Source: Candidatus Woesearchaeota archaeon (GTDB lineage: Archaea > Nanobdellota > Nanobdellia > Woesearchaeales > 21-14-0-10-32-9). From it: a stretch of 64,000 nt of DNA. Within the stretch, counting starts at the first letter, position 1. Each line of letters opens with the position of its first letter. The translations under genes and the position numbers were made by a program. The notes beneath the pieces were generated by a model. The model searched no databases. It saw only the letters and a list, made by a program, of their open reading frames with translations, and was not told where the DNA came from. The DNA lies in NCBI GenBank assembly GCA_021735165.1, contig JAIPHP010000003.1, forward strand, positions 1,419 through 65,418. The letters run 5' to 3'. This document shows, in pieces, positions 17,056 to 40,666 of the stretch.

Positions 17056-17056
17056 T
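17032..17056. repeat. 25-bp direct repeat copy 1 (gcacctagagttgacaatgattaat), putative attL; covers the last codons and stop of PCNA
   Basis: Exact 25/25 match to 40642-40666. Confidence 0.65.
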
Positions 17057-17479: not shown

Positions 17480-17914
17480 ATGAAACAGATAAAAAGAAAG
17501 GACTTTACACAAGAGTTCATAATTAAAATAGTAAATCCACGAAAGATTGGAAATCAATGGACAGGTTATATTTCAACAATTCATGCAGCTAATTTCTTTG
17601 GTAAAGATCTAGAAGTATTTCCAATGAGGTACAGAGATGAAGATGAGAACCTTGGTCTTGCATATTATACAGAGATGCCATCTGATTATTATTACAGACC
17701 ATACAAAGTCTACAAGCTAAAGAAAAATTACAAGTTAGCAAATGGCGAGACAAAAACAACCTGGAGTTATTGTATTCCCATTCCTGCAAAGATGATGGTA
17801 GATGTAGGAATATCTAAGCATGATCCAAGAAAACATCTTACTATAACTGGAGGTATCCTTGAGGATGGTTCAAGAGTAATACTTGTGCAAAAGTATAAGC
17901 TAGAGGCTAAGTGA
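17480..17914 (+). CDS. hypothetical protein
   Basis: 144 aa ORF with an RBS-like GGAGG 8 nt upstream. Confidence 0.45.
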   Translation: MKQIKRKDFTQEFIIKIVNPRKIGNQWTGYISTIHAANFFGKDLEVFPMRYRDEDENLGLAYYTEMPSDYYYRPYKVYKLKKNYKLANGETKTTWSYCIPIPAKMMVDVGISKHDPRKHLTITGGILEDGSRVILVQKYKLEAK

Positions 17915-18010
17915 TAATTTCGCTAATAAATCGCGGGAATCATGTATGTCTTACCCTGAAAAAGTCCAATGTTTCCCGCAGATGATTCGAATTTATGGAA
18001 GTTATAGAAG

Positions 18011-20074: not shown

Positions 20075-20363
20075 TCTTTATGAAAGAAATAAAGAGGCAA
20101 GGCAAGCAAATCCCTGTATCAATCCAAACTGTGAAAATTTTGTTGATATTGGAAATCAATACAATATTTGTATTAGATGTTTTGAAATGTTAGTTGATTA
20201 TTATGGGTCAGAACATTTTATTTTTGATTATGTGACTAAACCTGCATTAAGAAGAATGCCTGTTGAACAATTAAAGAAAGTATTAGAGAAAGCAGAAAAA
20301 GAAAAACGAACTCTCAAAAATAAGAGATGGGGCATTTCTAACAGTCAAAAGAGGTGGGAATAG
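20022..20363 (+). CDS. small zinc-ribbon protein
   Basis: CxNPNC...CIRC motif; overlaps the MCM-like 3' end (probable start at the internal Met near 20046). Confidence 0.4.
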   Translation: MLIIRRNKMKEDHYEKLNLYERNKEARQANPCINPNCENFVDIGNQYNICIRCFEMLVDYYGSEHFIFDYVTKPALRRMPVEQLKKVLEKAEKEKRTLKNKRWGISNSQKRWE

Positions 20364-20767
20364 TGTCAAATAAGATAGATAATTTTAAAGGGAAAAGGCA
20401 CACTTTTTCGCCAGAAGAGAGGGCGAAAGGTGGAAGAAAAAGAACAGATAAGAAAATTTACAATTGTCAGACTAACGCAATCAAAAAAGGTAAAACTGAG
20501 AATGTTTTGAAAGATTGTAATTCTTGCAATATTCCTCTTTGTCCTTTTTTCAAAGAAGATGAGCAATGTAGTATGTTTAATACAAAGTTTGTAAGATTAG
20601 TTTCGTTTAAGAAAAACCTTTCTTCAATAAAAGATTTTGATGCATTTATGTTTAATTTTTTTCAAAGGGGTGCAAGGGCTCAAACATCGGATTCTTTTGA
20701 AGAAATGAAAATATTTCTTGATGACCTTTTAGAATATAGAGAGTGGAAATATGAATCGCTTAGATAA
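20354..20767 (+). CDS. small Cys-rich protein, paralog A
   Basis: Shares the N-terminal motif DNFKGKxHxF...ERxKGGxK with the next ORF; CNSCNIPLCPFF Cys cluster. Confidence 0.45.
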   Translation: MGIVSNKIDNFKGKRHTFSPEERAKGGRKRTDKKIYNCQTNAIKKGKTENVLKDCNSCNIPLCPFFKEDEQCSMFNTKFVRLVSFKKNLSSIKDFDAFMFNFFQRGARAQTSDSFEEMKIFLDDLLEYREWKYESLR

Positions 20768-21131
20768 TTTCAAAGGAAAGATTCACAAACTTACTAAAGA
20801 TGATTGTATTAGAGGAGGCAAGGTTTCCAGTGAACGTAAAAGAAAAGCAAATGGTATTAAAAATCTTCTTCATGGAAGAAATTCAGATAAACTATTTTTT
20901 CTTTTGAGTTGTATTGATTGTCCCGCTATTGGCAGATGTGAAAAAAGTCATGATGGATATTGTACTTATCTTCTAGAAGAGATGAAACTCAATAGGGATT
21001 TTTCTAAGCAGGTTGCCAGATGTCTTCATGTTGATAAAGAAGGACTTGATCCAACTACTTTTCTGATGAAGAAATATGAATTAAATAAAGAGTATATTGC
21101 TATGTTGTTTCCTAGCGACTCCAATGGATAG
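20751..21131 (+). CDS. small Cys-rich protein, paralog B
   Basis: N-terminal LDNFKGKIHKLT...RGGK motif paralogous to 20354-20767; CIDCPAIGRCEKSHDGYC cluster. Confidence 0.45.
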   Translation: MNRLDNFKGKIHKLTKDDCIRGGKVSSERKRKANGIKNLLHGRNSDKLFFLLSCIDCPAIGRCEKSHDGYCTYLLEEMKLNRDFSKQVARCLHVDKEGLDPTTFLMKKYELNKEYIAMLFPSDSNG

Positions 21132-21170
21132 TTTGCTTCTCGACGGTGTTTATATATGTCTTAGAGCATC

Positions 21171-21464
21171 ATGGATGACAATAATAACACGAGGTATAAT
21201 AATATGGCAAACAAAAAAACAAAGAAAGATTCTTTTTACCAAATGGCTAAGAAAGTACTCAATACAGAAAAGAAACCTATGCACTATGCAGACATTACAA
21301 GGGAGATCTTAAAGACAAAAGAAAGTAAAGGTAAGAGTCCTGAAAGAACTGTAATGGCTGTAATCATTAGAGATTCTCATGATGTGTTTATGAAAATGGG
21401 TGATGGTGTTTTTGGACTTACTAAATTAAAAGAACTTTATTCCGCTGAAAGTTCAAAGGTTTAA
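21171..21464 (+). CDS. HARE-HTH-like winged-helix DNA-binding protein
   Basis: Pattern YQMAKKVL...MHYADITREIL...SPERTVMAVIIRDSHDVFMKMGDGVFGL resembles the HARE-HTH domain. Confidence 0.4.
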   Translation: MDDNNNTRYNNMANKKTKKDSFYQMAKKVLNTEKKPMHYADITREILKTKESKGKSPERTVMAVIIRDSHDVFMKMGDGVFGLTKLKELYSAESSKV

Positions 21465-23157: not shown

Positions 23158-24323
23158 CTTGCTATTCCCACTCTCGGATTTCAACTTTTGAACAATGTAA
23201 ATACAAGTACAAACTCCAATATATTGATAAGGTCAAAGTAGATGTTCCGACAACTGTTGAATGCTTTATGGGAGATCTTGTTCATCGTAGTTTGGAGAAG
23301 TTGTATAATGATCTGAAGTTTGAGAAACAGAACAGTAAAGAAGATCTAATCTCTTTTTTTAATGATCTTTGGTCTAAAGAGTGGACTGATGAAATCCTAA
23401 TTGTTAAGGAGGAGTTGAGTTCAGAGAATTATCGTTTGATGGGAGAGAAGTATATCTCTATGTATTATGATCATTATCAACCTTTTAATCAAATGACTGT
23501 TCTTGGTTTAGAGACTCAAGACAGAATGACTTTATCTGATGGAAACCAGTATCATGTAAGAATAGATAAGTTGGCTTGTGTGAGAGATACCTATTATGTC
23601 TGTGACTATAAAACTAATTCACGAATGAAAGATCAAGAAGAAGCAGACGAAGATAGACAACTTGCAATGTATTCAATCTGGGTAAAAGATAAATACAAAG
23701 ATGCAAAGAAAGTGGTTTTGCTTTGGCATATGCTTGCTTTTGATAAAGAAGCTATTTCTTCAAGGACTGACGAACAGTTGGAGAAATTACATTCCGAAGT
23801 TGTTTCTCAAATTAAAGATATTGAATCCTGTACTGAGTATCCTACTAATGTGACTGCACTATGCAATTATTGCGTGTATAAATCAATGTGTCCTTCTTTT
23901 AAGCATGAAGCAGAACTTGAGTTTAAATCTGCTGAAGAATTTACTGATGACTTCGGTGTGCAATTGGTTAATGATTATGCTGAAGCGGACTTTACTGAGA
24001 AAGAAGCTAAAAAGAAAAAAGAAGAATTGAAGATTAAGCTTATTGAGTTTGCAAAACAGAAAGAAGTTGATGTAGTCTATGGTTCTAATAAGAAAGCATC
24101 TGTTAAATCATATGACAAAGTTGTTTATCCAGAAGACAAAGCAGAGTTTATAAAACTCATAAAAGATAAAGGATTATATGATGAAATCAGCATGATTTCG
24201 TATCCTAGATTAAACTCACTTATCCTAAAAAAACAAGTTGATCAGGAAGTAATTGACAAGACTTCAACTGAAACTGATTATAGGATTTCACTATCTAAGA
24301 AGAGAACTGAGGGGGAAGAATAA
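23154..24323 (+). CDS. PD-(D/E)xK nuclease of the Cas4/RecB family with C-terminal Cys cluster
   Basis: N-terminal SHSRISTFEQCKYKYKLQYI (Cas4/AddB-like), DYKTN motif III, C-terminal CNYCVYKSMC Fe-S-type cysteines; 4-nt ATGA overlap with the upstream gene. Confidence 0.55.
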   Translation: MTCYSHSRISTFEQCKYKYKLQYIDKVKVDVPTTVECFMGDLVHRSLEKLYNDLKFEKQNSKEDLISFFNDLWSKEWTDEILIVKEELSSENYRLMGEKYISMYYDHYQPFNQMTVLGLETQDRMTLSDGNQYHVRIDKLACVRDTYYVCDYKTNSRMKDQEEADEDRQLAMYSIWVKDKYKDAKKVVLLWHMLAFDKEAISSRTDEQLEKLHSEVVSQIKDIESCTEYPTNVTALCNYCVYKSMCPSFKHEAELEFKSAEEFTDDFGVQLVNDYAEADFTEKEAKKKKEELKIKLIEFAKQKEVDVVYGSNKKASVKSYDKVVYPEDKAEFIKLIKDKGLYDEISMISYPRLNSLILKKQVDQEVIDKTSTETDYRISLSKKRTEGEE

Positions 24324-24332
24324 TAATGGCAC
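24286..24332. repeat. 47-bp direct repeat copy 1 (tttcactatctaagaagagaacNgagggggaagaataataatggca), flanks rhuM
   Basis: 46/47 identical to 25351-25397; contains the SD GAGGGGGAAG and the ATG of rhuM. Confidence 0.7.
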
Positions 24333-25348
24333 GGAATACAGATAATAATAAAATTGTCATCTATGAAACTGAAAAAGGGTTACCTAATATTGCAGTAAAG
24401 ATCGAAGATGAAACTGTATGGCTCACACAAGCCCAATTAGCTGATCTTTTTAGAACAACTAGACCTAATATAACAATGCATATTAGAAATCTTTTTGATG
24501 AAGGTGAATTGGATGAAAATTCAGTATGTAAGGATTTCTTACATACTGCTAATGATGGAAAAAAGTATAAAACTAAGCATTACAATCTTGATCTTATTAT
24601 TTCTTTAGGTTACAGAATTAAATCTAAAATTGCAACTAAATTTCGTCAATGGGCAACAGCAAGATTGCATGAATTCATAGTAAAAGGTTTTACTATGGAT
24701 GATGAGCGTCTAAAAAAGCTTGGTGGAGGTAATTATTGGAAAGAATTACTTGACCGTATCAAAGATATTCGTTCAAGTGAGAAAGTATTATATCGCCAAG
24801 TTCTTGACTTATATGCAACAAGCACAGATTATGATCCAAAATCAGCAGAATCAATTGATTTCTTTAAAGTTGTGCAAAATAAACTTCACTATGCAAGTCA
24901 TGGAAATACTGCTCCTGAGACAATCTATAATCGTGCAGATGCAGAAAAAGAATTTATGGGTTTGACTTCTTTTAAAGGAGACTTTCCTATCAAATCTGAT
25001 GTGGTTATTGCAAAGAACTACCTTTCAAAAAAAGAATTGAAAGTGCTTAATAATATAGTATCTGCATTCTTTGATCTGGCAGAAGTCAAAGCAATGAATC
25101 AAGAACCAATGCATATGAAAGATTGGATTATACAATTAGATCGTCTAATTCAGACATTTGACAAAGACGTCTTAACTGATGCAGGGAAGATCACTCATAA
25201 GAAAGCAGTGGAAAAAGCAGAAAAAGAATACAAAAAATACCAAGTAAAAACATTATCCCCAGTTGAAAAAGCATATCTAGAAAGCATAAAAGACGTTCAG
25301 AAGAAAGTCAAGAAAAGTGTAAATAAAGGAGCAAATAAAAATGAATGA
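24326..25348 (+). CDS. rhuM: RhuM-family protein
   Basis: N-terminus IVIYETEKG...IAVKIEDETVWLTQAQLADLF... is characteristic of RhuM, which is frequently embedded in type I R-M loci. Confidence 0.65.
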   Translation: MARNTDNNKIVIYETEKGLPNIAVKIEDETVWLTQAQLADLFRTTRPNITMHIRNLFDEGELDENSVCKDFLHTANDGKKYKTKHYNLDLIISLGYRIKSKIATKFRQWATARLHEFIVKGFTMDDERLKKLGGGNYWKELLDRIKDIRSSEKVLYRQVLDLYATSTDYDPKSAESIDFFKVVQNKLHYASHGNTAPETIYNRADAEKEFMGLTSFKGDFPIKSDVVIAKNYLSKKELKVLNNIVSAFFDLAEVKAMNQEPMHMKDWIIQLDRLIQTFDKDVLTDAGKITHKKAVEKAEKEYKKYQVKTLSPVEKAYLESIKDVQKKVKKSVNKGANKNE

Positions 25349-25350
25349 AG

Positions 25351-25397
25351 TTTCACTATCTAAGAAGAGAACAGAGGGGGAAGAATAATAATGGCAA
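25351..25397. repeat. 47-bp direct repeat copy 2, carries the SD and ATG of hsdM
   Basis: Matches 24286-24332 with one mismatch. Confidence 0.7.
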
Positions 25398-27100
25398 ATA
25401 TTACAGAATTAGCAAACTTCATATGGAGTGTAGCAGATCTCTTAAGAGGAGATTATAAACAATCAGATTACGGAAAAGTAGTCTTACCTTTCACGGTTTT
25501 AAGAAGACTTGATTGTGTTATAGAACCAACAAAAAAGAAAGTGCTTGATTATCTTCCAAAAATAAAAGGAATGAATATTAAAAATGCAGATCCAATTCTC
25601 AACAAAATTGCAGGATTAAATTTTCATAACAAAAGTAAGTTTGATTTTGAAAAACTAGTAGCAGATCCTGATAATATTGCTTCAAATCTAAGAAATTATA
25701 TCAACGGATTTTCTGAAGATGCAAGAAGTATAATGGAGTATTTTGACTTTGACAAAGAAATAGGTAAGCTCGATGATGCGAATTTGCTTTATATGATTGT
25801 TAAAAGATTCTCAGAAGTTGATTTACATCCTAACAAAATAAGTAATATTGAAATGGGGTATGCTTTCGAAGAACTTATCAGAAAATTCTCAGAGATATCT
25901 AATGAAACTGCTGGAGAGCACTTTACACCCAGAGAAGTAATTAGACTAATGGTAAATATTCTTTTCTTGAACGACAGAGATATTCTGACTAAGAAAGGAG
26001 TTACCAAAACCCTTTACGATCCTGCTTGTGGTACTGGAGGAATGCTTTCAGTTTCAGAAGAACATTTAAGAGAATTAAACCCAGATGCTCGTTTGGAAGT
26101 CTTTGGTCAAGAAATTAATCCTGAGTCTTATGCTATCTGTAAATCTGATATGGTTATTAAAGGTCAAAATACTGCAAATATAAAATATGGAAATACATTT
26201 ACGCATGATGGATTAGAGTTTAGCAAATTTGATTATATGCTTTCAAATCCTCCATTCGGAGTTGATTGGAAGAAATATGCTAAGCATGTAAAAGATGAAC
26301 ATGGAAACAGAGGTCATGCAGGAAGATTTGGTGCTGGGTTGCCTCGTATTTCTGATGGTTCATTGTTATTTTTACAACACATGATTTCAAAGATGAAACC
26401 GACTGGTTCTCGAATTGCTATTGTGTTTAATGGGTCTCCCCTATTTACTGGAAGTGCAGGTTCAGGAGAAACAGAAATAAGACGTTGGATTATTGAAAAT
26501 GATTGGCTTGAAGCAGTTATAGCTTTACCTGATCAACTATTCTATAACACAGGAATTAATACATATATTTGGATTATTTCAAATAAAAAATCTATTTATA
26601 GAAAGGGGAAAGTTCAATTAATTAATGCTACATCAGACAAATTTTATTCTAAGATGAAAAAGAGTCTTGGAAGTAAAAGACATGAAGTTGACAAAGTTTC
26701 AGAAATTACTTCCCTTTATGGTGATTTTAAGAATGGGAAATTCTGTAAACTTTTTGATAATGATGATCTTGGTTATTGGCAAGTTACTGTAGAAAGACCA
26801 TTAATGAAAGATGGAAAACCAGTTACTGATAAGAATGGCAATCCAAAACCTGACAGCTCATTAAGAGATACTGAAATAATACCATTGACGCAAGACATTA
26901 ATGAATATATTGAGAAAGAAGTAAAGCCTCATGTTCCTGATGCTTGGGTTGACGAATCAAAAACCAAGAAAGGGTATGAGATTAATTTTACTAAATATTT
27001 CTATGAATACAAACCTCTTCGAAGTTTGGCAGAAATCAAGAAAGATATTCTTGCTTTAGAAGAAGAAACAAAAGACATGATCGAGGAGGTTGTTGAATGA
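25391..27100 (+). CDS. hsdM: type I restriction-modification system methyltransferase subunit HsdM
   Basis: N6-adenine MTase motifs: DPACGTGGML (motif I) and LSNPPFG (motif IV); N-terminal HsdM_N-like region. Confidence 0.9.
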   Translation: MANITELANFIWSVADLLRGDYKQSDYGKVVLPFTVLRRLDCVIEPTKKKVLDYLPKIKGMNIKNADPILNKIAGLNFHNKSKFDFEKLVADPDNIASNLRNYINGFSEDARSIMEYFDFDKEIGKLDDANLLYMIVKRFSEVDLHPNKISNIEMGYAFEELIRKFSEISNETAGEHFTPREVIRLMVNILFLNDRDILTKKGVTKTLYDPACGTGGMLSVSEEHLRELNPDARLEVFGQEINPESYAICKSDMVIKGQNTANIKYGNTFTHDGLEFSKFDYMLSNPPFGVDWKKYAKHVKDEHGNRGHAGRFGAGLPRISDGSLLFLQHMISKMKPTGSRIAIVFNGSPLFTGSAGSGETEIRRWIIENDWLEAVIALPDQLFYNTGINTYIWIISNKKSIYRKGKVQLINATSDKFYSKMKKSLGSKRHEVDKVSEITSLYGDFKNGKFCKLFDNDDLGYWQVTVERPLMKDGKPVTDKNGNPKPDSSLRDTEIIPLTQDINEYIEKEVKPHVPDAWVDESKTKKGYEINFTKYFYEYKPLRSLAEIKKDILALEEETKDMIEEVVE

Positions 27101-28362: not shown

Positions 28363-28525
28363 AGAAGATAAAAATATACTTCTGGCGATAGGAGGCATGG
28401 CATTACTTGGATGGCTTTTAAGTAAAGACAAATATAAATGTCCTAGATGCAATTATCCCGTTACTAAAGAAATGTATTCTTGTCCTAATTGCGGTCAACC
28501 TTTGGCTTGGGAGGGTAAAAAATGA
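28355..28525 (+). CDS. 56-aa membrane-anchored zinc-ribbon protein
   Basis: MNKEDKNILLAIGGMALLGWLL (TM) followed by CPRC...CPNC; overlaps the hsdS stop (ATGAATAA) and the next start (ATGA). Below the ORF-track size cut-off. Confidence 0.4.
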   Translation: MNKEDKNILLAIGGMALLGWLLSKDKYKCPRCNYPVTKEMYSCPNCGQPLAWEGKK

Positions 28526-28845
28526 CTGATAAAGTTAAACCTCTGCCACCAGTAAAAGTAAAAATCAATCTTTGGAATTATTTAAAGTTAGGATTTTTAA
28601 TTTTAATATCTTGCATACTTTGGATTACATTAATTATTACAGGCATTAATTTGTTAGGGTATTATATTAAATCAATTATAGTTAATGGATTTTTTGATCC
28701 TGAAACCTTAAAATATGCCGTCATGCTTGTTGTTGGAGCTTATTTCTTTTTAATACTCGATAAAAATAAGATCTATGAAGCACTTAATGTAAAGAGGGGT
28801 TTGCCATTCATTACAGTTGAACAAATAGAGGAGAAAAAGAAATGA
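28522..28845 (+). CDS. small membrane protein (2 TM)
   Basis: 107 aa with two hydrophobic helices; translationally coupled (ATGA) on both sides. Confidence 0.45.
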   Translation: MTDKVKPLPPVKVKINLWNYLKLGFLILISCILWITLIITGINLLGYYIKSIIVNGFFDPETLKYAVMLVVGAYFFLILDKNKIYEALNVKRGLPFITVEQIEEKKK

Positions 28846-31181
28846 ATTTGATAATTAAAGTAATTACGGATTTAGGATATTTAATTTCTCCTGAAAATAG
28901 TCTTCTACTTTATTTCACAATATTGGGTATTTTAGTTACTTTAATTTCTATTTCAAGCAGTTTAACTAAAGAAGTACGTCAAGATTTATTTTATAATTAT
29001 TATATTAAATCAAAATTTCTGATTAGTTATCTAATATTTTATTTGATTTCATTTATTATTACATTTAGTTTTTATGTGTTTGAATGGGAATATTTGGATG
29101 TGTTATTAGGAACTCTTTTCATCATATTATTTGCTTGGTCGGTCTTTGTAATCTTTTTGTTTGTTAAAAATCTCAGTAGAAACTGGTTTTATGGACAACT
29201 TATTAGAAAGTTTAAATCAGAATTAAAAAAGACCAAACGGTCAGAAACCAAATATCAAACTCACACTCGAACAGAATTCAAATCATTAGATGATTTTCTA
29301 AAGAACCTAACTTATATTGAAACTACAAGTAGTGATTTTATCGAAGAAATAGAATTTGTAAAAGAGGTTGGTAGAATTACTCTAAAATCCAGTAATAATT
29401 ATATCTTTGATGATTTTTTTAGGCAACTTAAAAAAATAGAGAATCCTAAATTCTTTAGAAAATTAAGAAATTCTCTTTATGATTTAATGTGGGACAATTT
29501 CAATGAGCTAAGGGTTGTTATAAATCTTCAAAATATATATTCATCTTTATCAATTCATAGTTTTGAGAAAGTAAAAGAATTTGATAAAAATATTAATTCT
29601 GATGGTCTTAGAATTAAATCATTTAATGATATAAGATATATTGATTTATATGAAAAATCAACAGACCTAGATTGGATTAAGAGTTATGAAAGTCTAATTG
29701 TTAATACTATCAACAACTTATTTTCTTTAAGCAAGCAAACTATTTATTTGGATCTTGCTATAAAATCAAAGAAAAGATATCTTCTAGAACAATTGGGATC
29801 GATGGTTAAAGTTTTAGAGCATTATAATCACATACATGGACAAGATTTCCTAGATAATTATTATAATTTAAAATATAAAAAAGACATATCTGGAGATGAA
29901 AAGAAAAATTTGGATTTAGCAGATAGAAAATTGAATGCAATATCAGAACTAAAATCATTTCTTTGGAATAAACTGTCTGAATTATTCTATTTAATTTTAT
30001 ATGAAATTAATAGAAATGAACTTTCAAAAGATTTTTTTGAAGTGGCATTAAAGATATTTAATATTAAAAGTTTTAAAGACCAATTTTACTCTTATGAGAG
30101 ATTTGATAAATTAGATTTTTTAAATTACGACTGGTTTGAAGGCGGGGCTCAAGCTATTGCATCATTTAATTTTAACAAGTATAAATCATTGCTTTCATTC
30201 TATCAATATAAACTCGATGAGACTCTAGATTTAAATCAATATGGTGATGAACATTTCTCCAAACATAATGTTAATGATCTTAAAAATGCATTAAATGATT
30301 TGTCTGCAGAATATATAAATAAATATTTTGAATATGATTCTAAGCAGTTAAATGATTTTAAAAAGAAAGCCATTAAGGAAATTGACAATAAAATTAAAAT
30401 TTTAAAGAAGAATAAGAAAAAATATATTGCTGAAACTCCTTTAGTGAAAAAGTATGTGAATAATTTTATTTCAGACTGTAAATCTAATTGGGATAAAAAT
30501 CAAGAGATTCTCAAAAAGATCTTTAATTATGTTGAATTAGACAATGGTTATAAAGTTAAAAATTTCTTTGGTCAATACAAATTATTTGATAAAGATTGGT
30601 TTTTAGAATCTTTTGACAAAACTGTCGCTTTAGATAGAAGTTCAGGTCAGCACTTTGGAAGAGATCAAGTTATCAGTAAACGAAAAAATATATTAACAAA
30701 AATAAATGAAACTTTTAATGCCAAAATTGATAAAGAAATTATTGTAAAAGATCTATATTCTGATTTGAAGAAAATAATAAAGAAAAATAAAGAATACGTG
30801 TTGTTTTATAATTCTGATATTGGTAGAGAAATATATAGGATTCCTGATATTCAATGGGATAGACAAGAATGGCTTACAGCTTCGTTTAAAATTAATGATT
30901 CTAAAATTTTCTTGTATGCAACAAATATCGAGGAAAGTTTATTGTTTGAAAAGGAAAGCTTCACATTAGAGCAATATAAAGAAGGCTATGAGAAAATAAA
31001 ACAACCTTTAGTAGTGCAAGTTGAAGAAATAAAGAATAAGGATGAAATTAAAAAAATCAAAGAATCAAATGATAGATTCAAAAATACTCAAGATGTTCAG
31101 CAAAACGTAAAAATAAGAATTGCGGAAAAGTTCGAGATTAAACGTAATAAAGGTTCAAAATTTATTAGACTAAAAAGATAA
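28842..31181 (+). CDS. membrane-anchored large protein of unknown function embedded in the R-M operon (candidate abortive-infection/defense effector)
   Basis: 779 aa; about 4 N-terminal TM helices then a roughly 640-aa soluble domain with no recognizable motif; located between hsdS and hsdR. Confidence 0.5.
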   Translation: MNLIIKVITDLGYLISPENSLLLYFTILGILVTLISISSSLTKEVRQDLFYNYYIKSKFLISYLIFYLISFIITFSFYVFEWEYLDVLLGTLFIILFAWSVFVIFLFVKNLSRNWFYGQLIRKFKSELKKTKRSETKYQTHTRTEFKSLDDFLKNLTYIETTSSDFIEEIEFVKEVGRITLKSSNNYIFDDFFRQLKKIENPKFFRKLRNSLYDLMWDNFNELRVVINLQNIYSSLSIHSFEKVKEFDKNINSDGLRIKSFNDIRYIDLYEKSTDLDWIKSYESLIVNTINNLFSLSKQTIYLDLAIKSKKRYLLEQLGSMVKVLEHYNHIHGQDFLDNYYNLKYKKDISGDEKKNLDLADRKLNAISELKSFLWNKLSELFYLILYEINRNELSKDFFEVALKIFNIKSFKDQFYSYERFDKLDFLNYDWFEGGAQAIASFNFNKYKSLLSFYQYKLDETLDLNQYGDEHFSKHNVNDLKNALNDLSAEYINKYFEYDSKQLNDFKKKAIKEIDNKIKILKKNKKKYIAETPLVKKYVNNFISDCKSNWDKNQEILKKIFNYVELDNGYKVKNFFGQYKLFDKDWFLESFDKTVALDRSSGQHFGRDQVISKRKNILTKINETFNAKIDKEIIVKDLYSDLKKIIKKNKEYVLFYNSDIGREIYRIPDIQWDRQEWLTASFKINDSKIFLYATNIEESLLFEKESFTLEQYKEGYEKIKQPLVVQVEEIKNKDEIKKIKESNDRFKNTQDVQQNVKIRIAEKFEIKRNKGSKFIRLKR

Positions 31182-34267: not shown

Positions 34268-34648
34268 ATGGCTTTTGCATTATCATTAAAACAACCATGG
34301 GCTGAATTGATTTTACAAGGTAAGAAAACAATTGAGACTAGGAGATGGAATACTGAGTTTCGAGGAGAGTTCTATATTCATGCTTCCAAAACCATTGATA
34401 AAGAAGCTTGTGAAGAGTTAGGGATTGATCCTTCTTCTTTGGTTACTGGTGTTATTGTTGGGAAGGCAACAATAGTTGATGTTAAGGAGTATTATTCTGA
34501 AGACCAATTTATGAAAGATAATTCTAAACACCGAGCAGGATTTTATGGGTTTGGACATCCTCTTTTTGGATTCATATTGGAAGATGTAGAGCGAATCGAA
34601 CCAATTCCTCAGAAAGGTGCTCTGAAGTTTTTTGAGGTGAATGTATAA
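34268..34648 (+). CDS. ASCH-domain (PUA-like) protein
   Basis: LSLKQPWAELILQGKKTIETRRW is the hallmark ASCH N-terminal motif; starts 2 nt after the hsdR stop. Confidence 0.65.
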   Translation: MAFALSLKQPWAELILQGKKTIETRRWNTEFRGEFYIHASKTIDKEACEELGIDPSSLVTGVIVGKATIVDVKEYYSEDQFMKDNSKHRAGFYGFGHPLFGFILEDVERIEPIPQKGALKFFEVNV

Positions 34649-36912
34649 TGGGATCACGTACTGGCTCTACATTTAAGTCATTGGCTGGACGAAAGAGAGG
34701 CAGTAAATTAAAGAGTATTGGTGCTTCTATCTCTGCAGGCATGCAAGCAGGAGAAACAGCTATTGTTTCATCTGGAGGTGCTGTTAGTGCAGGATCTGGA
34801 GCAATTGTTAGTGGAGGGGGTAGTGGTGCAGGAGTTGCTTTTGTAGCACCAATTGCAGGAGCAGCTGCTTTAGTTGCAAGTAGTAAGCCTTCTATGGATG
34901 TAGTGTATCATACTACCAAGTTAGCTGATTCTGTTTTAAAAAATCTGAATGACCTAACTAACAAATATCAAACTGCAAGTCAGAATCAGCCTGTTTATTC
35001 TTATTTTGCTAAAAGTCCAGTTGAGTTTCCAGTTAATATGGTTCAGAGCATGGTTGTTGATGAAGTTTCTGATCTTGCATGGGCTAATGTAAAGAGTGAA
35101 CTTGGATTAAAGACAACTGCACACCAGGATAGAATTGCGAAATTTATCATTTCACAATTAATTGGTCTTACATTGAACATGATTAAACAGAAAATAAAAG
35201 GAGAGAAAATAGACAAGCACTTTTTCTATAAAGAAGTTATGGGTGCAGCTATTGAATATTGCCTTGATGGGTTTATGCAATCAAATGCAGAAAATGAAGT
35301 CTTATCATCAAACCCTTCTGTTGCTTATTGCCAAATGGAGACTGGCTCACAAAAAGTTTTTCAAACAGCTACAAAAGAGATTGCCAAAGAACTGGCAGAA
35401 TTAATCTATGATGATATCTCTTCTCAAAACGAGTTTCCAGAACAAAAGCAATTCAATAGGATACTAAAGAAAAGAGTCACTGAAAAACTAAAGGTAGAAG
35501 TGGAAGCCACAGAATATGAAGGGGATTCTGATTTCAAAAAGCAACGTCTTCTCGCCTCTGATCAAAAAAAAGTCCCAGATAAATTAGATAAGAAAGATGT
35601 TGTGATCTCTACTCAAACCACTGTCAATAAAAGAAAGATTGATGATTCTTTGAGAATACGATTTACCGCACCAGAGAATGATTATGTAAGGGGAAGGATA
35701 ACTCCTGCACATAGGGATTTGCTTTCTATAACATCTACTATTTCAAAAATAGAGTATCTAATGAGAAGTGGTGATGTCACGAATATTTTACCTACTGACA
35801 CAATCATTTACTCCAACACAGACATTTCTAAGAAAACCAGAAGCCTTGTTAATACACTTGCTTCTTTTTTGCTAACCTTTAACCCAAATATATCTATAAA
35901 GAAAAATAGTGCCTCTTCGGAAAAAAAAGAACAAAAGGAAAATACAGAAAAATCTGATGTTATTGTTCTATTCTCTGGAGGATTAGATAGTTTAGCAGGA
36001 TTAGAATATGCAAAGAAAAAATACAAAAACCCTAAGTTTGTATATGTGAATAATCAAGTCAATAGAACAAGTGCTGTTGTAAGATATCTTCAACATAAAC
36101 TCCATTTAGGAGATGACCTTATTATTTTCCAAAGTCAGAAAGGAGGACAATTTCTACAACAGACAAGAGGATTTTTATTTCTCTCTGCCGCGGCTGTCAC
36201 CGCAGATGTGTTTGGAGCTAAAGAAATAATTGTTGCAGAATGCGGGGTAACAAAATATCAACCCAGTACAACCATTTCTGATGAGATTACAAAAACAACC
36301 CACCGATTAATGATTGAATTGGCAGAACATATTTTCTCTGAGTTCAATATAAATGTAAAAATCAAGTTCCCATTTGATATGAAAACTAAAGCTGAGATCA
36401 TAGCAGGATATCCAGACAAAAAGCTTCTTATTGATTCTCATTCGTGTAGATCATCAAGATTTTCAGATAAAGATAAGGATGAATGTGGATATTGTTTTGC
36501 TTGTCTACTAAAAAATATAAGTTTATCTTATGTGTTGGGCAAAAAACAAGACCAGTTTTTAATTGATCCAATTACAAATTCACAATCCTTTACAACTCAG
36601 AATTTAGGAAGAACCAGATCGTTAAAGAATAAGTGCTATGAATCAATTTTCTCACTTATTAATTTCTCCAAATCAATGCTTGCAGGCAATCTTCCAGAGC
36701 CAATACAAAAGTACATGCAGGACTATGGAACAACTAAATTATTCAAGAATCATGCAGAAGATATGATTTATGGGCTTATGTTCATGAAGAATAAAGGATG
36801 GGTAAAAAATGAGAAAGTTCTCGAATTGCTTAACAAAATTGAGAAGGAATCTTGGTTTGATAAAAAACAAATACTTGAACGAAGAAAAGAATTACTAAAT
36901 GTTAAGACTTAG
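34648..36912 (+). CDS. fusion protein: Gly/Ala/Ser-rich N-terminus, unknown middle domain, C-terminal QueC-like PP-loop ATPase
   Basis: C-terminal VIVLFSGGLDSLAG (SGGxDS PP-loop) and CGYCFACLLKN Cys cluster as in QueC; N-terminal 80 aa GSxGAxVSGGGSGAGVAFVAPIAGAAALVASS (Gly-zipper/hydrophobic); 1-nt overlap with the ASCH gene. Confidence 0.6.
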   Translation: MGSRTGSTFKSLAGRKRGSKLKSIGASISAGMQAGETAIVSSGGAVSAGSGAIVSGGGSGAGVAFVAPIAGAAALVASSKPSMDVVYHTTKLADSVLKNLNDLTNKYQTASQNQPVYSYFAKSPVEFPVNMVQSMVVDEVSDLAWANVKSELGLKTTAHQDRIAKFIISQLIGLTLNMIKQKIKGEKIDKHFFYKEVMGAAIEYCLDGFMQSNAENEVLSSNPSVAYCQMETGSQKVFQTATKEIAKELAELIYDDISSQNEFPEQKQFNRILKKRVTEKLKVEVEATEYEGDSDFKKQRLLASDQKKVPDKLDKKDVVISTQTTVNKRKIDDSLRIRFTAPENDYVRGRITPAHRDLLSITSTISKIEYLMRSGDVTNILPTDTIIYSNTDISKKTRSLVNTLASFLLTFNPNISIKKNSASSEKKEQKENTEKSDVIVLFSGGLDSLAGLEYAKKKYKNPKFVYVNNQVNRTSAVVRYLQHKLHLGDDLIIFQSQKGGQFLQQTRGFLFLSAAAVTADVFGAKEIIVAECGVTKYQPSTTISDEITKTTHRLMIELAEHIFSEFNINVKIKFPFDMKTKAEIIAGYPDKKLLIDSHSCRSSRFSDKDKDECGYCFACLLKNISLSYVLGKKQDQFLIDPITNSQSFTTQNLGRTRSLKNKCYESIFSLINFSKSMLAGNLPEPIQKYMQDYGTTKLFKNHAEDMIYGLMFMKNKGWVKNEKVLELLNKIEKESWFDKKQILERRKELLNVKT

Positions 36913-37570
36913 TTTGCTCATTAAAACTATAATATCCTTCATTACCAATAATTACATGATCCAACACTTTAATAGATAATAATTCTCCTGACTTAAACAA
37001 TATGTCTGTAATTTTAATATCTTCTTCTGAAGGTTCTGCTTCTCCTGATGGGTGATTGTGAACAAGAATAACAGAATTTGCACTTTCTTTTATTGCAGAT
37101 TTGAAGACTTCACGAGGATGAATCAAAGAACTATTCAAAGTACCTACAGAAATAATTTCATCCTTGATAACTCTGTTTCTTGTATCTAGATGTAAGATCA
37201 TGAAGTGTTCTTTATCCGCTCCATTAAGTTTTGGGTGTGCATAATCAAATACATCTTTTGCTGATTTTATTGGTTTTCCATTTTGTTTAGATAAACTGTG
37301 TCTTTTATTGAATTCAAATAGTGCAATTATTTGAGAAGCTTTAGCTTTTCCTATGCCTTTAATCTCTTGTAATTCTTTTAATGAACAAGAAGACAATTTA
37401 TTAACTCCATATTTAGAAATAAGTCTATTGGACATATCAATTACGTTTTCTTCTTTTGTTCCTTTTTGTAGAATCACAGCTAATAGTTCTGAGTCTGAAA
37501 GTACAGAAACTCCTTGTTTTTCCATTCTTTCTCTAGGTCTATTCTCTAAAGAGATGTCTTTAATACGCAT
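36902..37570 (-). CDS. radC: RadC-family JAB/MPN (JAMM) domain protein
   Basis: JAMM motif HNHPSGEAEPSEED (HxHx7Sx2D), N-terminal HhH-like region; typical RadC/DUF2466. Confidence 0.8.
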   Translation of the reverse strand: MRIKDISLENRPRERMEKQGVSVLSDSELLAVILQKGTKEENVIDMSNRLISKYGVNKLSSCSLKELQEIKGIGKAKASQIIALFEFNKRHSLSKQNGKPIKSAKDVFDYAHPKLNGADKEHFMILHLDTRNRVIKDEIISVGTLNSSLIHPREVFKSAIKESANSVILVHNHPSGEAEPSEEDIKITDILFKSGELLSIKVLDHVIIGNEGYYSFNEQTKS

Positions 37571-37628
37571 TAATACATGATATCTTATGGTGTTTGATAA
37601 AGGTTTCTAAGAATTATCCGAAAGATTT

Positions 37629-37814
37629 TCACTTTTTCTGAACAATTATTTCATGTATTTCTCTAATTCTTTTTTCATTTATCATCTCATCACTTAGCAA
37701 TAAATCTCTAATAAATTGAGAAAGAGAAATGTATCCTTTGCATTCTTTTCTTAATTGTATTAATTCGTATTGTTTTGTAGTTACTCTAAAGTTGATGAAT
37801 CTAGTTCTTTTCAT
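37629..37814 (-). CDS. ribbon-helix-helix (MobC/CopG-like) small DNA-binding protein
   Basis: RTRFINFRVTTKQYELIQLRKECKG-YISLSQFIRDLLL pattern; 4-nt overlap with the upstream ligase gene. Confidence 0.45.
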   Translation of the reverse strand: MKRTRFINFRVTTKQYELIQLRKECKGYISLSQFIRDLLLSDEMINEKRIREIHEIIVQKK

Positions 37815-38620
37815 TTATCTTCTCTCACTCTTAAGATTTTTGGAAATCTCAACTTATAGCTGTCTTCTTTTTTATACATCATGTCATACCCAACCTCGAC
37901 TGTTTGTCCATTCTCTATATATAGTTTTGAGCTTGCTGTTCCTATCTGTTTTTCTCCTTCATTTAATGTGTATATCCATCCAAGATTATCTTTTCTTTCT
38001 CTTCTACTAATTACTTGCAAGTCTACTGTTCTAAGTGGTTTTTTCTTTAGCCAATTATATCGAGAGCCTGGATGATAAGGACTGCAGTTCTTTACTACTA
38101 TTCCTTCCATTCCTTTTTTTATCATCTTTGTATAAAACTCTTGTATGTCAACGATAGTATTGGTGCAAAAGAATGGAACGTGAGAAAGATGTTTATTTTC
38201 CTCAATCATCAAACCTAGATGTTGTTTTCGGGATAATAATGGATCTTTATAGAGGAAATGTTCTCCTATCTGTAAAACATCAAAAACAAAATATACAAAC
38301 TTTTGTCCAGGAGGAAGTTTCTTTAGCAGTACCGAATTTGAACTTAATATTTTTCCATTATCGACTACTGCTATTTCTCCATCCAGTATCATATTGATTC
38401 CATGAATTCCTTTTATTACTTCTTCTCCAAGATTTCCAAATCTTTTAGTCCAGTCTGCTCCACTTCTTGTAAAGAACTTGATATCATCTCCTTGTTTCAA
38501 ACATAGAATACGAACTCCATCTATCTTTGGCTCTACAAATACTCCCTCGTTATTGTAGAGAAAGATTCCTAAATCGCCTTCTCCTACTAATTGTGGCTTA
38601 AATTTCGTCAGATCTATCAT
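37811..38620 (-). CDS. small ATP-dependent DNA ligase
   Basis: Adenylation motif I EPKIDGVRIL (KxDGxR), motif V-like EGIVVK; 269 aa minimal ligase typical of mobile elements. Confidence 0.7.
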   Translation of the reverse strand: MIDLTKFKPQLVGEGDLGIFLYNNEGVFVEPKIDGVRILCLKQGDDIKFFTRSGADWTKRFGNLGEEVIKGIHGINMILDGEIAVVDNGKILSSNSVLLKKLPPGQKFVYFVFDVLQIGEHFLYKDPLLSRKQHLGLMIEENKHLSHVPFFCTNTIVDIQEFYTKMIKKGMEGIVVKNCSPYHPGSRYNWLKKKPLRTVDLQVISRRERKDNLGWIYTLNEGEKQIGTASSKLYIENGQTVEVGYDMMYKKEDSYKLRFPKILRVREDK

Positions 38621-38957
38621 TATTCGTTACCTCCTTAACCTCTTTATCAAGTAGCTTCAAAACCCACTTTCCACTACCTTGTGACGAGTGTGAACTCTTG
38701 AAATAAACTGCGAGTAAAGAACCAACATTAAACTCGCTGGCTTTCTCAATTATTCCATGCAGTCCTCTCATCTTGAACTTCTCTTCAGCTGTACTTTTTA
38801 CTTCCACAAGGAAAGTCTTTGTTTTACTAAACAAAACAACATCACAGACAGAATATTTTCTTCTGCCTGATGCAGCTACTCTTTCTGTATGGAAACCTTG
38901 TTCCTTCATGAGATTACAAAAATCTCTTTCATATTGCAGATGGCTTTTTAGTCTCAT
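38598..38957 (-). CDS. hjc: Holliday-junction resolvase Hjc-like PD-(D/E)xK nuclease
   Basis: ERVAASG...CDVVLFSK...LVEVKST resembles the archaeal Hjc catalytic core (E...D...EVK). Confidence 0.6.
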   Translation of the reverse strand: MRLKSHLQYERDFCNLMKEQGFHTERVAASGRRKYSVCDVVLFSKTKTFLVEVKSTAEEKFKMRGLHGIIEKASEFNVGSLLAVYFKSSHSSQGSGKWVLKLLDKEVKEVTNNDRSDEI

Positions 38958-40470
38958 CTTCTAATCGTACCTCCACTTGTTTTTTTACTAGATGATGGGC
39001 TTTGCATTTGCCCACTATCACATCTTCGTGATTCTCATATCTTTCAAGCAAAATAGTTTCTTCATGTAAGTCTTTGATTTGTTTGTCCTTATCGTACTTG
39101 ATTCCCATTTCATTACAATAAGCGATGATCCTCTCCACTTTCTTCGCATATAATAACAAACATCCTGTCTGTCTTGCCCAATCAAATAATTTGATTCCCA
39201 TAGGATTATTCATAATCAAAACGGGCTTTAGAGAATTGAATTGAGGAATCTTTCTCATATCATATGAGAAACCTTGAGACATACAACCAATCATGGAAGT
39301 GATGTATTTTTTTCCAGCCATACCAAGATATTTTCCTTTCTTATCTCGCTTAATAGAAACAGCATAACCCATAATCGGAACATCCATGATATCATCATAG
39401 ACATAAATTAGATAATCTATTGGATCATTATCAAACTTCCAAACATCAACTAAACGTTTTCCTTTCTCGTCAGTATATTTGTGAATACTATCTTTGTTAA
39501 ACCACGAAGGAATCTTCTTAGGAAAATCAGCATTAAGACGAACCTGTAATTTATACCTCTTAATCAGATACATTACAAAATAGAATATTGCCTGTTCTTC
39601 AAACGCAAAACCAAGAGAACTATTATCAAGAATGCTTTTGACTACCTCTTTTTGATGAATCTTAGGAACAAGTTCTGCAATTAAATCTTCTGGTCTTGAA
39701 GGATTGTAATAATAACGTCTTTGCTTATAGGAAAAGACTTTCAACCAACTCACGCTGACCAATCGATAAATTATCCAAGATTTGATGACTTCCTCATCAA
39801 GCTTATACCTATCCTTAAGAATGTCTACTGGAAAGATCTCATTAGAATGTATTATATCAAGATACGCAGTCCTAATTCCCTTAGGCATCAAATTCAATAT
39901 TTTAAGCTTGACAGCATCATCATCCCTGCCATAGACATATCCTGGTTTTCTACCATGAATCATCTCAGTAGCAGGAATAGTGAACTCACTTCTGCTAATC
40001 TTTCCAGCAGTAAACAACTCCCTAATACACTGATAAGTATAATCCCAATTACCATAATCCTCAAGAGATGGATAATCCTTAAGCTGATAGAAGACCTCTG
40101 CTAAAGTAAGCCCTGCCTTATTATTCTGAAAGATCTCAAAGACTTTAGCCTTGATACCAACCAAGAGCTCATCAGTATCAACTGTCTTGTTAAAAGACTC
40201 AATCTTCCTATTGACATCATCCTCACTAATACCATACACAAAAGAACGAGAACACATCCTTTTCTCAGACTGGACTCTAACCTTACTCTTAACAATCAAA
40301 TCCTTAAGCAATAATTGCTTTAAATAACTAGAAACATGATGCTTCTGAAGAGAAGTACCCTTAAACTCATCAGCAATCTCACTGGAAATCACAGCCCTCT
40401 TACGCACTATGAATTTATAGATCTTGTAAGTGTAAGATCCAGTATTGAACATAATATTCTTTTCCGCCAT
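38929..40470 (-). CDS. hypothetical protein with N-terminal wHTH-like region, adjacent to the putative attR
   Basis: 513 aa ORF; first gene inside the right border; no integrase catalytic motifs recognized. Confidence 0.45.
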   Translation of the reverse strand: MAEKNIMFNTGSYTYKIYKFIVRKRAVISSEIADEFKGTSLQKHHVSSYLKQLLLKDLIVKSKVRVQSEKRMCSRSFVYGISEDDVNRKIESFNKTVDTDELLVGIKAKVFEIFQNNKAGLTLAEVFYQLKDYPSLEDYGNWDYTYQCIRELFTAGKISRSEFTIPATEMIHGRKPGYVYGRDDDAVKLKILNLMPKGIRTAYLDIIHSNEIFPVDILKDRYKLDEEVIKSWIIYRLVSVSWLKVFSYKQRRYYYNPSRPEDLIAELVPKIHQKEVVKSILDNSSLGFAFEEQAIFYFVMYLIKRYKLQVRLNADFPKKIPSWFNKDSIHKYTDEKGKRLVDVWKFDNDPIDYLIYVYDDIMDVPIMGYAVSIKRDKKGKYLGMAGKKYITSMIGCMSQGFSYDMRKIPQFNSLKPVLIMNNPMGIKLFDWARQTGCLLLYAKKVERIIAYCNEMGIKYDKDKQIKDLHEETILLERYENHEDVIVGKCKAHHLVKKQVEVRLEDETKKPSAI

Positions 40471-40641
40471 TTATCATACCTTATTACAATAAATGACAGA
40501 ATTAGAGTGCATAAATAGTTAGTTCGCTTAATTAGTATTATTTATCTCCCAATTCGATATATTTTTATACATTAATCATATTAAACGGTTAAGACGTTGA
40601 ATATGACTAGTTGGCAATGAAAGGTCCCGAGCAAAGTGAGT

Positions 40642-40666
40642 GCACCTAGAGTTGACAATGATTAAT
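40642..40666. repeat. 25-bp direct repeat copy 2, putative attR
   Basis: Exact match to 17032-17056. Confidence 0.65.

Follow-up and report, generated by a model that had tools for sequence, protein, structure and literature searches.

A Horizontally Transferred Cassette Encoding a Predicted Nuclease, a Resolvase, and a Ligase at PCNA-Linked Islands of Woesearchaeota

Introduction

How can a large variable island come to lie precisely at the 3′ end of the PCNA gene of an archaeon when no integrase is visible in it? This question is raised by a stretch of 64,000 nucleotides from a Candidatus Woesearchaeota archaeon (GenBank assembly GCA_021735165.1, contig JAIPHP010000003.1, positions 1,419 to 65,418), hereafter called the window. 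At the right end of the island, the initial annotation, made from the letters alone, described five genes running leftwards that encode an uncharacterized protein of 513 residues, a Holliday junction resolvase of the Hjc type, a minimal ATP-dependent DNA ligase, a ribbon-helix-helix (RHH) protein, and RadC, and it suggested that this cluster could be an unconventional integration or replication module. Here, we show that the first three of these genes form a cassette with sharp ends that was recently transferred between distant Woesearchaeota genomes. They are the conserved and horizontally mobile part of the cluster, and an integration role is therefore a live hypothesis, which we weigh below.

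A Conserved Three-Gene Cassette with Sharp Ends

The five open reading frames (ORFs) lie on the minus strand at the positions originally given, and their domain assignments hold in Pfam and NCBIfam: the gene of the 513-residue protein (the 513 gene), without a Pfam match, at 38929–40470; hjc (119 residues, PF01870) at 38598–38957; the ligase gene (269 residues, PF01068) at 37811–38620; a NikA-like RHH gene (61 residues, PF21983) at 37629–37814; and a RadC gene of the JAB-domain kind (222 residues, PF04002) at 36902–37570. The overlapping stops and starts that had been claimed for all five genes are found in the first four, with overlaps of 29 nucleotides (nt) between the 513 gene and hjc, 23 nt between hjc and the ligase gene, and 4 nt between the ligase and RHH genes, and RadC stands apart from RHH by a gap of 58 nt. 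As an evolutionary unit, the five-gene operon did not withstand comparison with related contigs (numbered with an L throughout), given that RHH and RadC are missing from most of these loci; RHH recurs only in L004/L005, the closest lineage, where it is parted from the ligase gene by a gene of 280 residues, and RadC follows the ligase gene only in the window and in L083. Because RHH and RadC vary between related loci, the conserved unit comprises three genes and not five, and RHH, a co-transcribed neighbor, and RadC, a variable one, are neighboring cargo outside the module.

The order 513, hjc, ligase is kept in almost all other contigs that extend past the 513 gene, with 45–96% identity and differing flanks, and the ends of the three genes overlap or closely abut in these contigs as well, the 513 gene being the only one common to all related loci. 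In the window, the mobile unit is a cassette of 2.8 kilobases (kb) on the minus strand (37809–40609), which comprises an upstream site, here site B, with the promoter region, the 513 gene, hjc, and the ligase gene, and which ends at the ligase stop codon. These limits are given by the comparison with L082, where blastn aligned one single block, 37809–40609, with 89% nucleotide identity from TAGTCATATTCAACG to the ligase stop codon and with 513 proteins that are 96% identical. In L082, the triad stands alone between an NhaP-like gene and a Trm5 gene, with flanks unrelated to those of the window, and the NhaP-like proteins in this comparison share only 43.5% identity. The right boundary falls at the ligase stop codon also against L004, L009, and L083, and the homology has its left boundary at TTAGTCATATTCAAC against L004, L007, L008, and L009. 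The ligase 3′ end and a target site reconstructed from L082 both bear a resemblance to PCNA tails, which was too weak to use.

A second pair of contigs tells the same story beside PCNA itself. The PCNA genes of L011 and L015 are 58–75% identical at the nucleotide level (about 67%), and starting exactly at the PCNA stop codon the identity rises to 89–100% (mostly about 95%) over a block that holds the 513 gene, hjc, the ligase gene, and a zinc-ribbon gene of 160 residues (g160), before it drops to 37% some 3.2 kb further on. Moreover, the protein identities of 513 and PCNA are incongruent with each other, at 100% vs. 68% between L011 and L015, 84% vs. 56% between the window and L008, and 51% vs. 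72% between L011 and L083. At the junction of the 95%-identical cassette in both L011 and L015 (9866–9890), a palindrome, TAAATAC-TTCG-GTATTT(T/A), overlaps the PCNA stop codon.

The PCNA-Tail Repeat and the Island between Its Copies

The PCNA gene of the window, a host gene that serves as target or anchor, lies on the plus strand at 16312–17055 (PF00705/PF02747). The window has exactly two copies of the 25-mer GCACCTAGAGTTGACAATGATTAAT, with 0 expected in 100 shuffles: the attL-like copy (17032–17056, plus strand) holds the last seven codons and the stop codon of PCNA, and the attR-like copy of the PCNA 3′ end (40642–40666, plus strand) lies 172 nt upstream of the 513 start codon. The right-hand attachment (att) site that had been proposed next to the cluster is thus real, as the second copy of a perfect 25-nt direct repeat, and the cluster does lie at the right end of an inserted element with repeats at its borders, the variable defense island of 23.6 kb between the copies (17057–40641). 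Beyond the repeats, the genes are ordinary ones: the left side has RNase J and PCNA, and the right side has an ABC transporter and a pseudouridine synthase. A tRNA gene as the target was discarded, given that the window holds none.

The closest relative by PCNA, L086/L087 (81%), shows a syntenic PCNA gene and left flank, and no island downstream. In L086, the PCNA stop codon is followed after 105 nt by a second PCNA-tail-like copy, which together with its flank is about 72% identical to the attR copy and right flank of the window, the right flank of L086/L087 being otherwise different from that of the window. Thus, to judge from these alignments, the island appears to be an insertion or deletion difference located exactly between two PCNA-tail repeats. 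The L086 region (about 10735–10900) also has the PCNA stop codon inside an 8-8-8 inverted repeat (GATTAAAC-N8-GTTTAATC), and this arrangement with its second tail-like copy could be either the scar of a lost island or a target structure that was there before.

That no integrase is visible, as the initial annotation had noted, was confirmed by Pfam in all annotated island ORFs and in most of the other large ORFs of the window, and PHROGs, PADLOC, and NCBIfam, run on subsets of the window ORFs, detected no integrase or recombinase of a known class either. Likewise, neither the island nor the 3.2-kb transferred block of L011 and L015 yielded a mobilizing recombinase.

Linkage to PCNA and a PCNA-Tail Mimic at the Cassette End

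In at least nine independent loci, the 513 gene has PCNA within 10–20 kb of it, and two orientations occur. In the arrangement that we call type W (the window, L002, L006, L012, and L083/L085), PCNA is followed by a gene named g144 and by the cargo, and the triad runs back toward them from the far border, with the ligase gene next to the cargo and the 513 gene outermost; in type D (L011 and L015), PCNA is followed in the same direction by the 513 gene, hjc, the ligase gene, and then the cargo. There are also deletion derivatives (L008, L084, and L072) that have lost hjc and the ligase gene and in which the 513 gene, still intact, directly adjoins a truncated g144. The cassette never occurs amid the cargo; its place is always either the border of an island or right at the stop codon of PCNA. 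The association is a patchy one, with genes of the element present in only 2 of 61 metagenomic PCNA loci, whose PCNAs are 37–68% identical to that of the window.

The cassette carries at its own end a likeness of the PCNA tail. In the window, a 15-7-15 inverted repeat, TAATCATATTAAACG-gttaaga-CGTTGAATATGACTA, spans 40573–40609, and its arm B (40595–40609), which is the cassette end, is a family-conserved mimic of the PCNA 3′ end: its reverse complement, GTTGAATATGACTAA, keeps all the constrained positions of PCNA 3′ ends (GTN GAN NNN GAY TAA). The inverted repeat with the mimic as one arm is found in the window, L082, and L008, and the homology between cassettes starts exactly at the mimic, about 140 nt upstream of the 513 gene. 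Relative to the 513 start codon, the pattern GTNGA(N4-7)GAYTAR, which has a background rate of 0.01 per 300 nt, is located at −139 to −145 in five type-W loci, and four more loci have near matches, differing by one base; at the type-D loci it is the genuine PCNA tail that stands at −144, in the opposite orientation. In type-W loci, the mimic and the real PCNA tail are direct repeats that flank the element. Outside the window, an exact second copy of the PCNA tail of 10 nt or more was found only in L006, where an exact 10-nt repeat ends at the PCNA stop codon; a 17-nt match in L008 falls within an unrelated gene for a membrane protein, and we dismissed it as fortuitous, and no convincing second att copy was found downstream in L011 and L015. 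Upstream of the 513 gene, where an IS110-like system would have a structured or guide RNA, there was no Rfam match and no conserved structure. The exact 28-nt sequence ATAATAACTGGTATAATAACTTTACTAAC is present in this upstream region in both L001 (about 9930–9960) and L006 (about 9925–9955), whose 513 proteins are 53–61% identical to that of the window, and it is probably a promoter or operator element of this sub-lineage.

The 513-Residue Protein and Its Two Partners

The initial annotation pointed to profile searches with hidden Markov models (HMMs) and to structure prediction as the way to place the 513-residue protein, and structure prediction led to a C-terminal half like that of PD-(D/E)XK restriction endonucleases. 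Except for a weak Lrs14-type match of its N-terminal winged helix-turn-helix (E = 6e-4), the protein has no family match in Pfam, NCBIfam, PHROGs, or PADLOC; the C-terminal half matches neither Mrr_cat nor any other Pfam or NCBIfam family, and a profile search of the PDB gave nothing. The AlphaFold2 model shows three winged-helix domains, at about residues 1–95, 106–194, and 197–257, followed by a PD-(D/E)XK nuclease-like domain at about 285–440 and a helical tail. In Foldseek, the full-length model retrieved only proteins with multiple winged helices, such as RNA polymerase III subunits and cullins, and told us nothing further; the C-terminal domain was therefore modeled again alone with a deeper alignment, by which the predicted local distance difference test score was 83.6, compared with 74 for the full length. 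This domain has an alpha-beta-beta-beta-alpha-beta core (secondary-structure order H-E-E-E-H-E). Its top PDB matches (MspJI, AF1548, AspBHI, Card1/Can2/Cdn1, an Avs nuclease domain, and NucS/EndoMS) and its top BFVD matches (viral proteins labeled as restriction endonuclease or Mrr-like) are all PD-(D/E)XK nucleases, with probabilities of 0.9–1.0.

The conserved residues agree in part with the classical motif. Over 32 sequences, which include a shorter sister family of 340–390 residues with two winged helices and the nuclease-like domain, G287, P350, D352, and K374 do not vary, and conservation is about 90% at E291, S372, and Y389, which gives the family signature E..PxD..SxK. At the fold level, then, the model points to a DNA-binding protein with a predicted PD-(D/E)XK nuclease domain. 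Of the two findings that were to refute the initial reading of an unconventional module, one was obtained at the level of the fold, a non-recombinase assignment of the 513-residue protein, and the other, a canonical integrase acting on the att site, was not found.

The combination of three winged helices with a PD-(D/E)XK domain stands as a new and very rare protein family. A collection of 5.8 billion sequences yielded 26 relatives, all of about 500 residues and, where taxon-labeled, all from Woesearchaeota; 28 matches came from 1.84 billion cluster representatives that were searched exhaustively with an HMM; and the family is present in 9 of 185,579 species representatives. No relative was found in 2.9 million IMG/VR contigs, 50,697 INPHARED phage records, or 72,556 PLSDB plasmid records. 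The genome records of L008, L011, and L015 carry the label “uncultured Methanosarcinales archaeon”, with 513 proteins that fit the otherwise Woesearchaeota-labeled family and PCNAs that are 55–66% identical to that of the window, so this label is probably a mislabeling of metagenome-assembled genomes. One member of the short family, P0051 (604 residues), carries a genuine tyrosine recombinase domain (PF00589, E = 2.5e-11) as a C-terminal fusion, which may be real or may come from two adjacent genes merged by an assembly error; P0051 aside, three other contexts of the short family showed no consistent integrase.

The two partners are recognizable enzymes. Hjc matches PF01870 (E = 1e-11, 44.9 bits vs. 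a gathering cutoff of 21.1), the Hjc of PDB entry 4tkd (E = 2e-3), and phrog_6591, with its catalytic tetrad E10/D39/E52/K54 intact, and its 32 bits fall far under the NCBIfam equivalog cutoff of 70. The ligase matches PF01068 (E = 4e-31, 108.6 bits) and phrog_114, and by inspection motifs I (KIDG) through VI (RFPKILRVREDK) are all present; it consists of an adenylation domain and a short oligonucleotide-binding domain without the N-terminal DNA-binding domain, aligns to the catalytic core alone of longer Lig1/3/4-type ligases, and also scores far under the NCBIfam equivalog cutoff. Of the two neighbors, the RHH protein reaches PF21983 right at the curated cutoff (E = 3.5e-6), and RadC matches PF04002 (E = 1e-46), with a marginal JAB match in PADLOC.

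How the Cassette May Move, and What Else Could Explain It

Our preferred reading, which we put forward tentatively and rate at somewhat below an even chance, is that the cassette is a self-mobilizing unit for cutting, resolving, and sealing DNA that nucleates defense islands at PCNA. According to this proposal, the 513-residue protein would recognize the PCNA-tail-like sequences at the cassette end and at the end of PCNA, and would cut or nick them hydrolytically; Hjc would resolve the branched or nicked intermediates, and the cassette-borne ligase would seal them. The outcome would be an insertion or rearrangement at the PCNA 3′ end without any tyrosine, serine, or DDE recombinase, after which the cassette would mark and maintain the hotspot while defense cargo builds up between it and PCNA. 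A hydrolytic nuclease stores no bond energy, and therefore such an element would need a resolvase and an ATP-dependent ligase; in addition, the quasi-palindromic nature of the site could explain why both orientations are found at PCNA. A cassette without a conventional integrase may thus move by a mechanism not yet described. That the 513-residue protein, Hjc, and the ligase take part in moving DNA or in recombining PCNA-tail sites is, in our estimation, somewhat less likely than not. The bolder version, in which the 513-residue protein founds a new class of site-specific integrase or transposase with a PD-(D/E)XK fold and a triple winged-helix reader, whose cassette homes to the PCNA 3′ end in either orientation and seeds defense islands in DPANN archaea, is possible, although we consider it rather unlikely.

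Several observations weigh against a self-mobilizing cassette. No terminal inverted repeats above the shuffled background were found at the island ends, and we could identify no duplication of the target at the junctions of L082, L011, or L015. In L002, L008, and L083/L085, direct repeats are either imperfect or lacking, and the repeat may predate the island, given that L086, where there is no island, already has two tail-like copies. Because the deletion derivatives L008 and L084 lack both hjc and the ligase gene, with the 513 gene intact there, these two genes are not strictly required in cis. The nuclease assignment is one of fold-level similarity only (Foldseek E about 1e-3 to 1e-4, template-modeling scores about 0.3–0.4), and the acidic position of the (D/E)xK motif is Ser, Thr, or Asn in this family. 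Our integrase scans cover ORFs of the 64-kb window and are compatible with a recombinase encoded elsewhere in the genome. Finally, Mrr/MspJI-like nucleases are typically defense enzymes, and defense operons generally show sharp boundaries and frequent transfer without moving themselves.

These last points lead to the strongest rival, a real contender to which we give clearly less than an even chance, namely, that the triad is a traded accessory operon, either an Mrr/MspJI-like defense system or an auxiliary repair kit of PCNA clients, which is moved in trans by a host Xer-type recombinase, by the integrase of another element, or by illegitimate or homologous recombination in a PCNA-adjacent hotspot. 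The best structural matches of the C-terminal domain are indeed type IV restriction and defense nucleases (MspJI, AspBHI, Card1/Can2, and Avs) and the PCNA-dependent repair nuclease NucS, the neighbors of the triad include defense genes (type I restriction-modification, QatC-like, RhuM, TIR, and SLATT), and Hjc and DNA ligase are PCNA partners in archaea; the imperfect repeats, the duplicated PCNA tail of L086 without an island, and the lack of inverted terminal repeats or target duplications at the cassette ends all fit such passive transport. Against it stand the position of the cassette, never in mid-cargo, the PCNA-tail mimic at its own end, and the negative recombinase searches of the island and the 3.2-kb transferred block. 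Furthermore, the 513-residue protein, Hjc, and the ligase (and likewise RHH) have no PADLOC match, and we know of no described defense system that has Hjc and a ligase as its set of components.

Much less probable is that the triad served as the replication module of an integrated plasmid or virus, with the 513-residue protein as an origin-binding initiator on the upstream inverted repeat, Hjc resolving replication intermediates, the ligase sealing the products, and integration occurring by other means. The inverted repeat upstream of the 513 gene is conserved, viruses commonly encode a resolvase and a small ligase, both enzymes have PHROGs matches (phrog_6591 and phrog_114), and the island has a 687-residue protein with a weak AAA match and a Bro-N protein, all of which are in keeping with such a module. 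It would not explain the failure to find any 513 relative among the IMG/VR, phage, and plasmid records searched or any gene for a capsid, polymerase, or primase, nor the L082 triad, alone between two housekeeping genes, and to our knowledge PD-(D/E)XK domains do not serve as replication initiators.

A vertically inherited housekeeping operon for recombination and repair that lies near PCNA by chance, as the position of the triad in L011 and L015, right behind PCNA and codirectional with it, and the status of Hjc as a core archaeal gene might suggest, is very improbable, since it is excluded by the 89%-identical L082 block in an unrelated context, the jump of identity at the PCNA stop codon of L011 and L015, and the incongruence of 513 with PCNA, and the rarity of the family and the lack of the triad in nearly all related PCNA loci also speak against it.

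The LLERYENH stretch at residues 474–481 of the 513-residue protein, which had been read as faintly reminiscent of tyrosine recombinases, lost its value as a hint, with no Phage_integrase match, no R..K..HxxR..Y set, and no conservation of Y478 in distant members. That the protein is nonetheless a highly divergent tyrosine recombinase, as the invariance of Y478 and H481 within the close family and the fusion of the distant homologue P0051 to a Phage_integrase domain might be taken to mean, is the least credible of all these explanations, given that PF00589, NCBIfam, and PHROG integrase matches and an R..K..HxxR..H/W..Y set are all missing, Y478 is replaced or misaligned in distant members, the C-terminal region is predicted to fold as PD-(D/E)XK plus helices, the recombinase of P0051 is an added C-terminal domain outside the homologous part, and a tyrosine recombinase would need no ligase.

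Comparison with Known Systems

Islands placed at the 3′ ends of conserved genes are familiar, as are mobile selfish nuclease operons, and in kind the object described here is one of these; its machinery and protein family are not familiar. The literature that we searched did not mention PCNA as a target of integration, nor did it mention the triad of 513, Hjc, and ligase. Tyrosine integrases bring islands and proviruses, such as the archaeal pNOB8- and SSV-types, into the 3′ ends of tRNA or protein genes (reviewed in PMC8371274). The island resembles these in the direct repeat of a conserved host gene 3′ end, the variable cargo between the repeats, the candidate recombination gene adjoining the att site, and the absence of the element from close relatives, and it differs from them in that no integrase of a known class was detected, PCNA is the target, both orientations to the target occur, and the border gene is that of a predicted hydrolytic nuclease accompanied by a resolvase and a ligase.

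By architecture, the 513-residue protein comes closest to the type IV restriction endonucleases Mrr, MspJI, and AspBHI, which also join N-terminal DNA-recognition domains to a C-terminal PD-(D/E)XK domain, and MspJI, with its QxK motif, offers a precedent for a non-acidic residue before the catalytic lysine. In contrast to these enzymes, it carries three winged helices in tandem where they have an Mrr_N or SRA-like domain, lacks a match to Mrr_cat in Pfam, and is encoded in an operon with Hjc and a ligase at island borders, by a PCNA-tail mimic. Mobile restriction-modification complexes, which reportedly insert with long target duplications according to Kobayashi and colleagues, are likewise compact nuclease operons with precise ends and varied contexts, and sometimes with long direct target duplications and adjacent inversions; the cassette, in contrast, has no methyltransferase, brings a resolvase and a ligase, and is consistently linked to one target gene.

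Free-standing homing endonuclease genes, which include PD-(D/E)XK enzymes such as I-Ssp6803I, share with the cassette the tie of a nuclease gene to one site in a highly conserved gene, together with a patchy and horizontally transferred distribution. However, the adjacent PCNA is not co-converted, the identity dropping abruptly at the junction between L011 and L015, and the cassette has its own resolvase and ligase; repair-templated homing is unlikely because the far-side flanks are non-homologous. Nuclease or resolvase folds are also known in transposition and site-specific recombination, as in TnsA of Tn7 (PD-(D/E)XK) and in IS110/Piv (RuvC-like DEDD), and Tn7 inserts just downstream of the conserved gene glmS. 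Compared with these, the cassette has no TnsB, TnsC, or TnsD partners, no DDE or DEDD domain, and no structured RNA resembling a bridge RNA upstream, and the domain order of the 513-residue protein is opposite to that of TnsA. As for the partners, Hjc with its tetrad and the ligase with motifs I–VI intact are like archaeal Hjc and the minimal viral-type ligases of the Chlorella virus class, and they differ from archaeal Hjc and Lig1-type enzymes in being a pair on a mobile unit, in scoring under the equivalog cutoffs, and in a ligase that lacks the DNA-binding domain.

Prokaryotic site-specific integration, as far as we know, relies on tyrosine, serine, DDE, HUH, DEDD, or Cas1 enzymes, and that the cassette embodies a new recombination mechanism is a possibility we regard as doubtful, though worth stating for what would follow from it. 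It would be a different way of moving DNA, akin to a natural “restriction-ligation” with a junction intermediate, and it would account for the presence of a ligase gene on the element itself. The PCNA 3′ end would then be a previously unrecognized integration hotspot in a universally conserved replication gene, and there would be a mechanism for the assembly of defense islands in DPANN archaea, about whose mobile elements little is known. A conservative reading keeps the new rare protein family, the clear recent transfer between species, and a well-delimited system of three small proteins and short DNA sites.

Other Features of the Island

The content of the island is varied. In addition to the cassette, RHH, and RadC, it includes a module of g144, the 687-residue protein, and a HARE-HTH protein, a Csa3-like regulator, Bro-N, a Cas4-like nuclease, RhuM, a complete type I restriction-modification system with two orphan ORFs, an ASCH-domain gene, and a QatC-like gene. 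The module lies at the left end by PCNA (17480–21464 in the window, 20485–21539 in L004, and 11145–15259 in L016/L085) and is common to islands with differing cargo, comprising g144 with a possible AbrB-like motif (GNQxTxYxP), a large orphan protein, small ORFs, and the HARE-HTH protein. The large orphan protein is the 687-residue one, with its weak AAA match, in the window, and a different protein of 496 residues in L085.

The rhuM gene (24326–25348) is flanked by a 57-nt direct repeat with 91% identity (24286–24342 and 25351–25407), by which the ribosome-binding and start region of hsdM is duplicated ahead of rhuM, so this gene looks like a single-gene cassette inserted in the type I restriction-modification operon with a long target duplication. 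In the same operon, two orphan ORFs of 107 and 779 residues, without detectable homology, lie between hsdS and hsdR (28522–31181); the 687-residue, 779-residue, and g144 ORFs gave no informative matches when followed up. Directly after the ASCH-domain gene, a QatC/QueC-like protein of 754 residues with a long Gly/Ala/Ser-rich N-terminus is encoded (34268–36912), and the QatA, QatB, and QatD partners of the Qat defense system are missing. In the orthologous island of L083 (8352–14834), the cassette is followed by RadC, a ThsB-like TIR protein, QueC, Ogg-HhH, a TGT/DpdA-like protein, SLATT, and a different type I restriction-modification system, such that the cargo has been fully turned over behind a conserved cassette and a conserved flank.

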